A DNA stretch of 64,000 nucleotides, from positions 1 to 64,000 of the IMG/VR virus record IMGVR_UViG_3300044630_004371; one strand, 5' to 3'. The notes beneath the pieces are model-generated. The model saw only the letters and a list, made by a program, of their open reading frames with translations, made no database searches and had not been told where the DNA came from. This document shows positions 26,622 through 30,816 of this stretch, one piece after another; the first letter of the stretch is position 1, and the number at the start of each line of letters is the position of its first letter. Both the position numbers and the translations under genes were made by a program. This stretch comes from a virus.

Positions 26622-27323
26622 ATGAAAAACTTTATAAAAAAATTACTACGTGAAGTAATAAACGCCAGCGAAGCACAACGAGATGAAGATGCTTTAAAAA
26701 CTGTTATAGACGGAAAGAGAGATTTGGGGTTCATAACCTTAAAAGCCGCAACAATCCCAGAAAAAACATTTTGGGATGAAATTAAAAAACATGGTTTAGG
26801 AACTATAAGTCTTCCATTGAATCGTTATAACGCTTTCATTTATTTTAGAAAAGGTGCTGAATTAAAAGCCCTTGAATTATCTAATATTGCAAATAAATAT
26901 GGTGGTTATCTATCATATGAAGCAACCAGAGATGAGACAATAAGAATTGGGCAATTGCTAGGTTATAAAGAATCAGATATATCTGATTATATAAATAAAA
27001 AATACCCAGTAAATGAACAAATGATTGATGGTCAAGACATGAATCAAGGGACCCAAACCCTGTGTAATAAAATGACCATAAACAGCTATCAAGAAGCCGC
27101 ATTCTACGTCAAGAAGGCTCTAGAAGGTATGGATAAAACAACCAAAAATAGAATCATGCAAAAGATTCATGTGCCTTTGGAGAACCTTAGACAAGAACAA
27201 AATACAATCAATTCAGAAATCAAAAATAATGGTATGTCTGGAGATTCAATACCAGACGAAGCTGATACATATTGGCATCAAATTCAATCAACCATTTGTG
27301 AAATGGGTTCAGATTTTGAATAA
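26622..27323 (+). CDS. Putative internal head protein with IKKLLRE leader
   Basis: MKNFIKKLLREVINASE leader; second module after PVNE. Confidence 0.55.
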   Translation: MKNFIKKLLREVINASEAQRDEDALKTVIDGKRDLGFITLKAATIPEKTFWDEIKKHGLGTISLPLNRYNAFIYFRKGAELKALELSNIANKYGGYLSYEATRDETIRIGQLLGYKESDISDYINKKYPVNEQMIDGQDMNQGTQTLCNKMTINSYQEAAFYVKKALEGMDKTTKNRIMQKIHVPLENLRQEQNTINSEIKNNGMSGDSIPDEADTYWHQIQSTICEMGSDFE

Positions 27324-27376
27324 AATCACTTGACAATTTTATAAGTTTTAGTATATTTATTATTGCGTTGACTAAT

Positions 27377-27435
27377 GTATTGGTCCCGACTGGTAAAACA
27401 GTTTAGAGTTGTTTCGGCAACAAAGGTATCGGTAC
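27377..27435 (+). ncRNA. Candidate structured 5'-leader RNA (three-way junction)
   Basis: P1 GUAUUGGU/AUCGGUAC, P2 GACUG-GUAAAA-CAGUU, P3 GUUGU-UUCG-GCAAC; GC-richer than flanks; lies between promoter and ATG 27464. Confidence 0.5.
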
Positions 27436-27463
27436 AAATAACAAAAATTAAAAGTTAATAAAA

Positions 27464-28372
27464 ATGAAACAAAACATCTGTGCACCAAGTGTGCCCACAG
27501 CAAACCTTGCTGTCAACAAATCTAGAGTAAAGCTCTATTCAAAGGGTCTGGATATGCCGACCTATTATCTCCAAAAAGGACAAGAGTTCCAATTTGAATT
27601 ATTTAACCCAACATCAGACGTAGTACTGGCCAAGATTCAGTTAAATAGAAAGGTTATTTCCCAAGGAGGGTTAATAATAAATCCAGGTCAACGTTTATTC
27701 CTTGACCGTTATTTGGATGTTGCTCAAAAATTCTTATTTGATACCTATGAAGTGGGTGAAACCGATGAGGTTAAAAAAGCCATTGAAAACAATGGTGATA
27801 TCAAAGTTGAATTTTATAAAGAACGTCAAGAAAACCCACCGATTAGAATAACACCAAATTGGACTTATAGAACTAATATTTATTACAGCAATACAAGTAT
27901 TGGTGGTTCTAATTTTACAGGTACTGACCCTCAGTTTTTACGTAATGGTACAATGTCCACAAATAGTTTGACCAATGGTTCCGTAACAACTACAAACGTA
28001 TCTACTGGTAATGCTAGTTTTACACCATCAGTGTCTTCTAATCTATTCAACCTTTCTAATTCTAAGACAACGTTTGATTCTTTTATTGATGATTTTAATG
28101 CTATTAAGGACGTTAAAAGAACTCTAGCCAGAAACAAAAAATCAATAGAAACAGGAAGAGTTGAAAAAGGTTCACATTCTGAGCAAGAGTTCACCTATGT
28201 AAACAAATCATTTGAATATTCACCATTCCATATAGTAGAGTATAAACTCTTACCAGTTTCTCAAAAGGTTAATACCGTAGATGATATCAATGTAAAAAGA
28301 TACTGTACCAACTGTGGTTCAAAATTTGGCAAGACCGATAAATTCTGTGCGAATTGTGGTCAAAAAGCCTAA
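27464..28372 (+). CDS. Zinc-ribbon domain-containing protein
   Basis: C-terminal CTNCG...FCANCG; Ser/Thr/Asn-rich central linker. Confidence 0.75.
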   Translation: MKQNICAPSVPTANLAVNKSRVKLYSKGLDMPTYYLQKGQEFQFELFNPTSDVVLAKIQLNRKVISQGGLIINPGQRLFLDRYLDVAQKFLFDTYEVGETDEVKKAIENNGDIKVEFYKERQENPPIRITPNWTYRTNIYYSNTSIGGSNFTGTDPQFLRNGTMSTNSLTNGSVTTTNVSTGNASFTPSVSSNLFNLSNSKTTFDSFIDDFNAIKDVKRTLARNKKSIETGRVEKGSHSEQEFTYVNKSFEYSPFHIVEYKLLPVSQKVNTVDDINVKRYCTNCGSKFGKTDKFCANCGQKA

Positions 28373-28395
28373 TCAAAAATAATAGTTAACGCAAT

Positions 28396-28426
28396 AAAAA
28401 AGGGGTTTTTAACCCCCTTTTTTTTT
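28396..28426. terminator. Bidirectional intrinsic terminator at convergent strand switch
   Basis: AAAAAAGGGG-TTTTTAAC-CCCCTTTTTT with A/T tails on both sides. Confidence 0.8.
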
Positions 28427-29183
28427 ATCTCATATTTTTACCTAATAACCCTTCTCTATTCATTCTAATTTTTAAATCTCTTATCCATCTTTCTTTAAAA
28501 TTACTTGGTAAACTATTATTTACAGTGTTTAAGGCTGGTGATATATTTAATATATCGTCAAATGTCAAGACATTCCAATTATTTTTATATTTATTGTATA
28601 ATTGTTTAATATTATGAATTTGTCCTTGTATTTCCATTTTTGTTGCGTTAACTGGAATTCCACCTATATCTCTTGTTTGTAATTCCACCTGTTTATTGAT
28701 TCTTTTTTCTATGTGTCTATTATGAAACACATCATCAATCCAATGTGTTAATTCATGATGAATAGAACCTTTAATTTTTTCTTCGGTAAATTCTATTTTA
28801 AATATCTTTTTTTGTTTGTAATCACTTAAATCATTAACAGCTTTAACAAAATCACCACCATTCGATAACACATGAGCTAAAGCATTTTTATGTATACCAA
28901 TACTTATTAATGATTTTTTTGGGTCGTAAAAATTACTACCCATATTAACCAAAATAGTACATGGTTTTAATTGATTAGCAATGATACATTCCCCATCTTT
29001 AAAAATCCTCGTTGTTGTTTGATTTTCTTTAAACATATTTCTAGTTACAATATTGGTTCTTTCAATCTCATCAATATCATTTTTAAAATAAAGATTGTAT
29101 AATAAATTAACATCTGATTCTATATTTGTTAATCTCTCAATTAACAAATTTTCTCTTAAAAGTTTTTTAATTAAATTTTTCAT
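28425..29183 (-). CDS. Putative internal head protein with HExxH (zincin-like) motif
   Basis: MKNLIKKLLRENLLIE leader; IHHELTHWID and downstream EIQG. Confidence 0.55.
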   Translation of the reverse strand: MKNLIKKLLRENLLIERLTNIESDVNLLYNLYFKNDIDEIERTNIVTRNMFKENQTTTRIFKDGECIIANQLKPCTILVNMGSNFYDPKKSLISIGIHKNALAHVLSNGGDFVKAVNDLSDYKQKKIFKIEFTEEKIKGSIHHELTHWIDDVFHNRHIEKRINKQVELQTRDIGGIPVNATKMEIQGQIHNIKQLYNKYKNNWNVLTFDDILNISPALNTVNNSLPSNFKERWIRDLKIRMNREGLLGKNMR

Positions 29184-30350: not shown

Positions 30351-30419
30351 TTATCTTAATTCTGCTACGTTGAATGTAGGTACACCATCTACTCTTACAT
30401 GCCCGTAAAACCTGTTATT
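30351..30419 (-). pseudogene. Orphan recoded copy of the last 22 codons + stop of the major capsid gene
   Basis: Translates NNRFYGHVRVDGVPTFNVAELR*, identical to 31604-31672 but with 13 nt differences in 12 codons, all synonymous. Confidence 0.9.
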
Positions 30420-30816
30420 TGGTTAGAATAATTTGATATGTTAAATCAGCAACGTACTCCAACATGGTCTTTCCGTGTTGTTTTATGAATTTAATTCTAT
30501 GTTTATTTACATTAAATGATTCTAATTTTGGTATTTCATTTACTTCACCCATAACATATTTATGAGCCATTGGATAATTTATAGCAAAAACCTTAAAACC
30601 CACCGAATTCACCAGCTCAACATCTCTTTTATTACCACCCCATAATTCAAGCTCATTAATATATTTATCTAAATCTTCTCGTAGGATACACCAACATTGA
30701 ATGCCATCATAAGGTAATTTTCTAATGGTACCACGATTATCAAAATTCTTTGTTCGTACAAAAATGATGTCATTATTAAGGTTTTCTCTTAATATTTTTT
30801 TTATCAACAACTTCAT
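30415..30816 (-). CDS. Hypothetical protein with IKKILRE leader (cassette passenger)
   Basis: MKLLIKKILRENLNN; ATATTTAT motif at 30821-30828 immediately upstream. Confidence 0.65.
   Translation of the reverse strand: MKLLIKKILRENLNNDIIFVRTKNFDNRGTIRKLPYDGIQCWCILREDLDKYINELELWGGNKRDVELVNSVGFKVFAINYPMAHKYVMGEVNEIPKLESFNVNKHRIKFIKQHGKTMLEYVADLTYQIILTK

Follow-up and report, generated by a model that had tools for sequence, protein, structure and literature searches.

Why should the first bases transcribed from a phage gene be able to pair with a segment beyond the stop codon of the same gene? This question is raised by a gene for a 302-amino acid (aa) protein with a C-terminal zinc ribbon, found in the window (64,000 nucleotides (nt), positions 1 to 64,000) taken from IMG/VR virus record IMGVR_UViG_3300044630_004371. 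The gene is preceded by a compact three-way junction and flanked by two complementary segments (the 5' and 3' arms), and we present evidence that both RNA structures, the junction and the helix joining the ends of the message, are very probably real and selected. An initial annotation of this sequence had proposed a promoter, the two arms, the junction, an open reading frame (ORF), and a terminator, and all of these were recovered at the coordinates it had given; the linker and the pre-start element are additions of the present analysis:

27330-27359, plus strand: promoter, recognized from the sequence, with a -35-like TTGACA (27330-27335), a 16-nt spacer, and the -10/-7 box TATATTTA (27352-27359)
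27360-27374, plus strand: 5' arm TTATTGCGTTGACTA, from sequence and covariation, with its conserved core at about 27363-27374
27377-27435, plus strand: three-way junction, from covariation
27377-27387 with 27425-27435, plus strand: stem P1 of the junction, with two invariant wobble pairs
27388-27403, plus strand: P2, a hairpin with a GUAAAA loop (27388-27392 with 27399-27403)
27408-27421, plus strand: P3, a hairpin with a UUCG loop (27408-27412 with 27417-27421)
27436-27463, plus strand: A-rich linker and ribosome-binding region without a Shine-Dalgarno sequence, from the sequence
27453-27459, plus strand: conserved pre-start element AGUUAAU, ending 3-5 nt before the ATG
27464-28372, plus strand: ORF of 302 aa, from the ORF list
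28383-28397, plus strand: 3' arm TAGTTAACGCAATAA, from sequence and covariation, beginning 10 nt past the stop codon
28402-28426, plus strand: intrinsic terminator (GGGG...CCCC hairpin and T-run), from sequence and fold, shared with a convergent minus-strand block

The ends of the predicted message are complementary

In the window, TAGTTAACGCAATAA is the reverse complement of TTATTGCGTTGACTA save for one position, which forms a G.U pair on the plus strand. When both strands of the window were searched, matches to the arm with at most one mismatch occurred at these two sites only; with up to three mismatches allowed, there were 6 matches against 3.03 expected, an excess that is not significant alone. 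One of the looser matches, TTGTTGCGTTAACTG (28640-28654), would be a third copy of the 5' arm with 3 mismatches; it lies within a gene of the convergent minus-strand block and was rejected as not above chance. The best duplex between the 5'-untranslated region (UTR) and its 3' counterpart scored 13.5, whereas mononucleotide shuffles averaged 6.11 and went no higher than 12, and the complementarity that the initial annotation had described, including its single G.U pair, thus exceeded all 2000 of 2000 shuffled sequences. When the full-length window transcript was folded, both the minimum free energy (MFE) structure and the centroid structure held a 12-base pair (bp) panhandle, the junction, and the terminator.

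The leader contains a covarying three-way junction

The initial annotation had named covariation in homologs as its decisive test. For this comparison, related loci were retrieved in three sets, namely a first set of 9 loci, the best 80 of 227 IMG/VR loci, and the best 80 of 501 metagenome loci, and a covariance model was built on a MAFFT alignment of 20 leaders. In this 20-leader alignment, 95.0% of the cells were paired, 16 of the 21 pairs had changed on both sides, and none of 500 shuffles matched the observed value on any of five measures. A larger junction alignment of 67 distinct sequences, which was fitted to the covariance model and so leans towards structure, had changes on both sides of 19 of 21 pairs and 96.6% paired cells, versus 27-55% in controls in which the register was slid; again, 0 of 500 shuffles attained the observed value. 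The junction bases UUUAGAG and CAAAG are conserved, and the U.G and G.U wobble pairs of P1 are invariant (66/66 sequences).

The covariance model found one match in the window, with a score of 123.4 bits. Across the window and 80 viral loci it gave 80 hits, all on the strand of the gene and immediately 5' of it, and it matched 67 of the 80 metagenome loci at E <= 0.1. Each of these 147 hits had a -10 box beside the leader, in a single orientation. When five records were searched in full, three of them complete genomes of ∼360 kb, each contained one strong match, and the two extra hits in these records were at chance level (E of 0.3 and 0.86).

The leader by itself is not unusually stable (z = -1.73; 13 of 200 shuffles fold equally well). 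Since its folding energy is unexceptional, the case for the junction rests on covariation and not on energy. A search with Rfam 15 gave no match at the gathering score in the window; the three matches returned within 27300-27480 were all at chance level, and none of the 28 weak matches from 10 related loci fell inside a leader. The initial annotation's statement that the RNA belongs to no known family therefore holds for Rfam.

Judged from this covariation, the junction is an RNA structure under selection. Its invariant junction bases and covarying stems are traits of an aptamer-like core, as in riboswitches; the leader was always found before the same uncharacterized phage protein, however, and not before the genes of one pathway or transporter that a riboswitch would be expected to control. 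Because the wobble pairs of P1 and the junction bases are invariant, a protein partner is proposed, and the junction most likely binds such a protein.

Pairing of the two ends is conserved across related loci

After removal of 9 hits in which the ORF or a flank was incomplete, 138 of the 147 model hits remained, and these represent 110 distinct loci. An end helix was scored as present when an ungapped duplex with a score of at least 9 ended 0-5 nt before P1. By this measure, 5'- and 3'-UTR segments are complementary within one transcription unit in 84 of the 110 distinct loci as well as in the window. Arms taken from the same locus had a mean duplex score of 10.76, compared with 7.20 when arms were combined across loci, and a score of at least 10 was reached by 75% of own-locus arms but only 13.4% of cross-locus arms.

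The 84 units were then compared in a MAFFT alignment of whole units, which was fitted to no structure. Over 13 pairs, 86.7% of the cells were paired, versus 73.0 ± 0.9 in shuffles and 23-41% in slid controls; there were 135 double-change cells versus 51.9 ± 5.1, and the covariation score was 0.261 versus 0.092. For each of these three measures, 0 of 500 shuffles reached the observed value. The covariation that the initial annotation had asked for was thus found in the terminal complementarity as well as in the junction. Because the loci are related, the mismatch counts and p values given here and below describe non-independent events.

The arms differ between loci in ways that preserve pairing. 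Around a GUUAAC core, the flanks of the 5' arm read GCG, ACG, GUG, UAG, UGG, or UGA, and they change together with those of the 3' arm (GCG/CGC, ACG/CGU, GUG/CAC, UAG/CUA, and AUGAUUAAC/GUUAAUCAU). Nine distant loci (38-41% protein identity) carry the unrelated arms AUGAAACCUUGUU/AACAAGGUUUCAU and variants of these, and a third kind of arm, UCUCACUUUGUU/AACAAAGUGAGA, is present in LR756500. The occurrence of unrelated but complementary arms indicates that complementarity, and not a motif, is conserved.

In these loci, the helix is 9-20 bp long, mostly 10-15 bp. The gap between helix and P1 is 2 nt in 34 of the 84 loci, the 3' arm starts 9-15 nt past the stop codon in 69 of 84, and the median duplex energy of the panhandle is -14.4 kcal/mol.

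Pairing occurs at the level of the sense transcript

Arms of this kind might instead act as DNA, either as inverted sites for a regulator or as the termini of a segment that inverts or moves. In its commonest form, the arm core reads GTTAAC, a palindrome, and the position of the 5' arm across the predicted transcription start is typical for an operator. The mismatches, however, are strand-asymmetric: among arm cells that are not Watson-Crick pairs, there are 14 G.U and 1 A.C on the plus strand. When the columns of the MAFFT alignment were counted, with three misaligned rows included, the numbers were 17 G.U and 4 A.C (binomial p = 0.0036). This excess of G.U over A.C argues for sense-strand RNA pairing rather than DNA repeats and is in line with the initial annotation, which had assigned the pairing to RNA. 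A shared protein-binding motif, GTTAAC, as the cause of the repeats is ruled out by the lineages with unrelated arms, in which the sequence is wholly different and complementarity is retained. The uniform orientation of the 147 model hits and their -10 boxes gave no sign of an inverted state, there is one copy per genome in the five records, and no recombinase adjoins the element in the window. Action of the repeats as DNA is, on this evidence, very improbable.

The initial annotation had also listed a small mobile unit among its explanations, and this part of its interpretation did not survive, although RNA pairing, conserved structures, and the absence of an Rfam family all did. A mobile element is ruled out by the single copy in five records (3 complete) and by a conserved upstream neighbor, whose gene end is common to 6 of the 9 loci in the first set. 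As a separate observation, one distant locus (L173, positions 1001-1240) has three tRNA genes, with scores of 51-58 bits, immediately upstream of the leader.

Based on the alignments of both elements, selection is shown to act on the sense transcript for the junction and for the end helix.

Predicted boundaries of the transcript

Among 109 distinct loci, 84 have a -35-like word 15-19 nt ahead of the -10 box, and 76 contain the box TATATTTA itself. In 60 of 83 loci, the proximal 12 or fewer nucleotides of the 5' arm begin 5-7 nt past the -10 hexamer, where +1 is expected. From this spacing, we infer that the core of the 5' arm starts at the transcription start. At the other end, a hairpin and T-run follow the 3' arm in 77 of the 84 loci and start 6-9 nt past it in 54 of these 77.

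Contigs from four lake or freshwater metatranscriptome runs (three studies) cover parts of the gene; these contigs are assemblies that carry no end, strand, or joint information, and DNA carry-over is possible. One of them, 27078-28037, comes from a close relative (12 differences) and spans the upstream gene into the ORF. An additional A, placed between the 5' arm and P1, follows 27373 in this contig.

These boundaries bear on a different role for the flanking helix, in which it would be an RNase III processing site used to cut a single-gene message out of longer read-through transcripts. Excision of this type is known from rRNA precursors and T7 early mRNAs. No terminator separates the stop codon of the upstream gene (27323) from the promoter, and the contig 27078-28037 from an RNA library means that read-through transcripts may exist. 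The helix could also stack on P1 across the 2-nt gap and so form a longer, quasi-continuous duplex, and the 5'/3' pairing of Staphylococcus aureus icaR mRNA is reported to be an RNase III substrate (PMC3868564). The helix of mostly 10-15 bp is nevertheless shorter than the approximately two helical turns usual for RNase III. Moreover, the promoter is conserved and its predicted +1 coincides with the start of the arm, so the gene's own transcript would need no trimming. We regard a processing site as quite unlikely.

The 5' arm may also pair with a pre-start element

The P1-proximal part of the 5' arm (27367-27373, GUUGACU) is complementary to the pre-start element at 27453-27459, and the two are paired in the MFE structure of the leader alone. 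The 3' arm and this element share their sense, with AGUUAA in both or AAGG in both. Thus, the 3' arm is not complementary to the ribosome-binding site, as it would be in an icaR-type arrangement, but complements the 5' terminus instead.

Across loci, the best duplex between 5' arm and pre-start element had a mean score of 6.14, compared with 4.28 for shuffled pre-start sequences, and 61 of 84 (non-independent) loci had p <= 0.05. Several compensating changes were found by eye. A C-G pair is replaced by G-C (GUUAAG with CUUAA) in L081, L130, L133, and L140, none of which has a 3' arm, and by A-U in L089 and L131. In the CCUU group, the whole helix is CCUUGUU/AAUAAGG and the element reads AAUAAGG or UAUAAGG, and in L139 UUAAGG faces CCUUAA. 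The AAGG-bearing elements of the CCUU group and L139 resemble a Shine-Dalgarno sequence. The median duplex energy of the pre-start helix is -4.1 kcal/mol.

Whether the 5' arm has two competing partners, the pre-start element and the 3' arm, is in our estimate evenly balanced. A more elaborate proposal builds on such competition, namely a three-part RNA switch that senses completion of the transcript. During transcription, the weak pre-start helix would close the junction and mask the ribosome-binding region; the emerging 3' arm, which resembles the masked region and is longer, would then invade via the free 5'-most bases, capture the 5' arm, and expose the start site. If this were true, only complete messages would be translated, and ribosomes that terminate ∼11 nt ahead of the helix would come off the message beside the start site, which would amount to a closed-loop mRNA of bacterial type. 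We consider this switch a doubtful possibility.

The arms bracket the transcription unit in loci interrupted by an endonuclease

Two loci contain a homing endonuclease within the transcription unit:

L068, 1163-1861: ORF for a GIY-YIG and NUMOD homing endonuclease
L056, 1065-1880: ORF for a GIY-YIG and NUMOD homing endonuclease

In both loci, this ORF follows a canonical leader and carries some 20 initial codons of the zinc-ribbon gene as an in-frame fusion, which ruled out the reading of L068 and L056 as tandem paralogs. Past the endonuclease lies a degraded copy of the leader (36-39 bits, with neither promoter nor arm) and then the full gene. The 3' arm after this full gene matches the 5' arm of the first leader over a distance of ∼2 kb (11 and 14 bp), and the arm flanks differ between the two loci. 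A match that holds across the inserted endonuclease implies that the arms bracket the transcription unit and not the coding sequence. The endonuclease in these loci is borrowing the promoter and leader of the gene.

A panhandle-closed message is the favored reading

We favor, with moderate confidence, a message that is closed by the panhandle and carries the adjoining junction, and whose closure serves protection of the message, translation of complete messages, or both. The gene's own promoter would give a message of roughly 1.06 kb, in which the first ∼12 nt would pair with a segment ∼11 nt past the stop codon and before the terminator, forming a panhandle beside the junction. The paired 5' terminus would be shielded from 5'-end-dependent decay, and because its pairing partner lies at the 3' end, this protection would be limited to complete transcripts. 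Alternatively, the same 5' bases could pair weakly, over 6-7 bp, with the ribosome-binding region just before the AUG. Once transcribed, the far stronger 3' arm, a look-alike of the ribosome-binding region, would lift this mask, so that complete messages would be favored for translation. The footprint of a terminating ribosome reaches about as far as the start of the 3' arm, so that the loop would not have to be opened for translation to proceed.

Several results weigh against closure of the message or against a masking role of the pre-start helix. For the end helix, two of the five measures applied to the alignment fail to discriminate (168 of 500 shuffles for double-change pairs and 83 of 500 for further pair types), and 26 of the 110 loci fall below the threshold. 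About a dozen of these have a terminator with no visible 3' arm, which suggests that the panhandle is dispensable in some lineages. The panhandle was present in 84/84 full-length folds, but this number is biased, as the sequences were cut at the arm. The contig 27078-28037, obtained from run X1, crosses the promoter unbroken, and read-through transcription and DNA carry-over are indistinguishable in this case. For the pre-start helix, formal pair counts among close relatives gave no signal, and in distant relatives the control slid by +1 scored higher (0.131) than the real register (0.107). A pre-start helix of at least 5 bp was found in the leader-only MFE structures of just 39 of 84 loci, and the predicted pairing of positions -15 to +3 is alike in leader-only and full-length folds (6.1 versus 6.4 nt). 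Finally, a mask whose relief is strictly required is hard to reconcile with the lineages that have a pre-start helix and no 3' arm.

The encoded protein belongs to a family of huge phages

A model of the 302-aa protein predicted by AlphaFold2 from a 94-sequence alignment (predicted local distance difference test score of 81, predicted template modeling score of 0.67) places residues 1-130 and 225-275 in one immunoglobulin (Ig)-like β-sandwich, interrupted by a disordered insert rich in Asn, Ser, and Thr (139-220). The C terminus is a CxxC...CxxC zinc ribbon. This ribbon, noted in the initial annotation, is substantiated by its four Cys residues, which are invariant in 94 aligned homologs; its match to Pfam Zn_ribbon_3, however, is subthreshold (19.5 bits versus a cutoff of 27). 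A Foldseek search against PDB returned nothing at E <= 1e-3, a wide VIA-align comparison found nothing beyond generic Ig-like sandwiches (Z at most 6.5), and a PDB profile search matched the ribbon alone (E of 0.08). In the ESM Atlas, only clusters of Uroviricota labeled "hypothetical protein" were recovered, and PHROGs contained no family for the protein.

In the BFVD database, matches other than the phage homolog, which ranked first, were to 17 uncharacterized proteins of eukaryotic large DNA viruses (Foldseek E of 8e-9 to 5e-4). They come from giant, irido-, nudi-, and nimaviruses and include Wsv390 of white spot syndrome virus and ISKNV ORF098. Their template modeling scores are low (0.30-0.45) with high root mean square deviations, and any shared origin would be putative.

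The family is large: of 2226 candidates, 1485 are relatives at E <= 1e-3, and there are 1515 clusters at 50% identity. Many members lie on contigs of 100-377 kb. Among named phage records, tblastn located the gene in 15 Lak Prevotella megaphage records (MK250015-MK250029) and in 7 huge uncultured phages of 462-735 kb (LR756500-LR756508 and LR745206), with 30-45% identity in these Lak and other huge phages. The leader model matched in 3 of 4 named-phage loci (LR756504, 55.1 bits; LR756500, 46.9 bits; LR756508, 29.9 bits). In the fourth, Lak-C1, the gene is present and no leader was detectable (best score of 13.2 bits, E of 2.6); the homologous frame has an in-frame TAG at its start.

These data bear on the proposal that the leader is an operator, at which the encoded zinc-ribbon protein or another phage protein binds the junction and sets its own synthesis, with the end pairing as an accessory stabilizer. 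Autoregulatory leaders of this kind are known from T4 gp32, RegA, and ribosomal proteins. The proposal is consistent with the invariant U.G and G.U pairs and junction bases within covarying stems, with the strict tie of the leader to one gene and its one strong match per genome, with the invariant Cys4 ribbon of the protein, and with the co-occurrence of leader and gene down to 30% protein identity. It is weakened by the generic Ig-like fold of the protein and by Lak-C1, which has the gene and lacks a detectable leader. An operator of this type is in our judgment unlikely as the main function, and we retain the panhandle-closed message as the favored explanation.

Source phage, host, and neighboring genes

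The source of the window is a very large phage from lake water. The record has 86,858 bases, of which the window is the first 64 kb, and its rating of 22% complete implies that the phage genome measures several hundred kb; complete records of related phages have terminal repeats and a length of ∼360 kb. A nucleotide search of the phage collection gave no match.

The ORF closes a long plus-strand block, and a minus-strand block converges on it at the common terminator. The promoter layout, cTTGAC-N16/17-TATATTT[GA], recurs elsewhere in the window 15-20 nt before start codons, for example at the following sites, recognized from the sequence:

25189 and 51638, plus strand: promoter-like layout
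36178, 35664, 49831, and 31520, minus strand: promoter-like layout

The other promoters of the window have an ATG within 15-20 nt, and the 105-nt leader of the 302-aa gene is exceptional among them. A Shine-Dalgarno-like word precedes only 4 of 65 ORFs in the window, and the 25 nt upstream of start codons are 51% A. We take this promoter layout and these start regions to fit Bacteroidota-type expression signals. Together with the host given for the Lak records, Prevotella, this background agrees with a Bacteroidota-type host.

Three otherwise unrelated ORFs in the window, identified from the sequence, begin with near-identical N-terminal tags (MKNFIKKLLRE, MKNLIKKLLRE, and MKLLIKKILRE):

26622-27323, plus strand: ORF with the common N-terminal tag
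28425-29183, minus strand: ORF with the common N-terminal tag
30415-30816, minus strand: ORF with the common N-terminal tag

The shared tag could be a targeting signal or a cleaved propeptide signal. Two of the three ORFs were searched against Pfam and PHROG, and no family was found.

Comparison with known systems

A catalogue of IMG/VR intergenic regions lists 8495 candidate structured RNA motifs (PMC10690425). The junction could be one of its unnamed "DNAVirus_X" entries; the main text of that report contains no occurrence of jumbo phages, of zinc, or of junctions. According to the same text, the pipeline treated single intergenic regions and could not detect pairing between 5' and 3' ends. 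No report of a phage mRNA with paired ends was found in the literature searched, the scope of which was journals other than those on subscription. If the assignments above are correct, the junction is a new, putatively protein- or ligand-binding three-way-junction RNA, and the leader serves the expression of a hallmark gene in huge Bacteroidota-type phages, a group with Lak megaphage relatives among its members. The locus would offer a clean model for how closing a bacterial mRNA affects its stability, the translation of complete messages, and ribosome recycling, and a portable stabilizing cassette for gene expression in Bacteroidota is a possible use.

Stem-loops at the 5' terminus, such as that of the ompA leader, protect bacterial mRNAs from 5'-end-dependent decay. 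The phage message resembles these stabilizers in that its 5'-terminal nucleotides would be base-paired. Unlike in such local hairpins, the partner strand lies ∼1 kb away in the 3' UTR (∼2 kb in L068 and L056).

Longer-range pairings that involve untranslated or ribosome-binding regions are described in three reports. Distant anti-ribosome-binding-site sequences pair with ribosome-binding sites in vivo (PMC12697547). In S. aureus icaR mRNA, pairing of the 3' UTR with the complementary Shine-Dalgarno sequence prevents initiation and gives rise to a site for RNase III (Ruiz de los Mozos et al. 2013, PMC3868564). Both messages have a 3'-UTR segment of the same mRNA in a pairing that touches the ribosome-binding region; in contrast to icaR, the phage 3' arm resembles the pre-start element and pairs with the 5' terminus, so that the ribosome-binding region would be freed by it and not masked. 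In Bacillus subtilis hbs mRNA, a 14-bp interaction of the 5' UTR with the 3' UTR modulates cleavage by RNase Y (Braun, Durand & Condon 2017, PMC5737220). This interaction limits how ribonucleases reach the hbs leader. The likeness lies in an intramolecular 5'/3'-UTR helix of similar length (14 bp in hbs, mostly 10-15 bp here) in a short, highly structured, single-gene message. The phage helix differs in that it would take up the very first transcribed bases and abuts a three-way junction; it is also supported by covariation in more than 80 lineages, where hbs was studied by mutagenesis, and it probably operates in hosts that do not use Shine-Dalgarno sequences. Only a handful of bacterial-type intramolecular 5'/3'-UTR pairings, such as hbs and icaR, are documented, each from mutagenesis in a single species. 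For the phage helix, compensatory mutations have arisen naturally in more than 80 lineages, and the replacement of whole arms shows that complementarity itself is selected.

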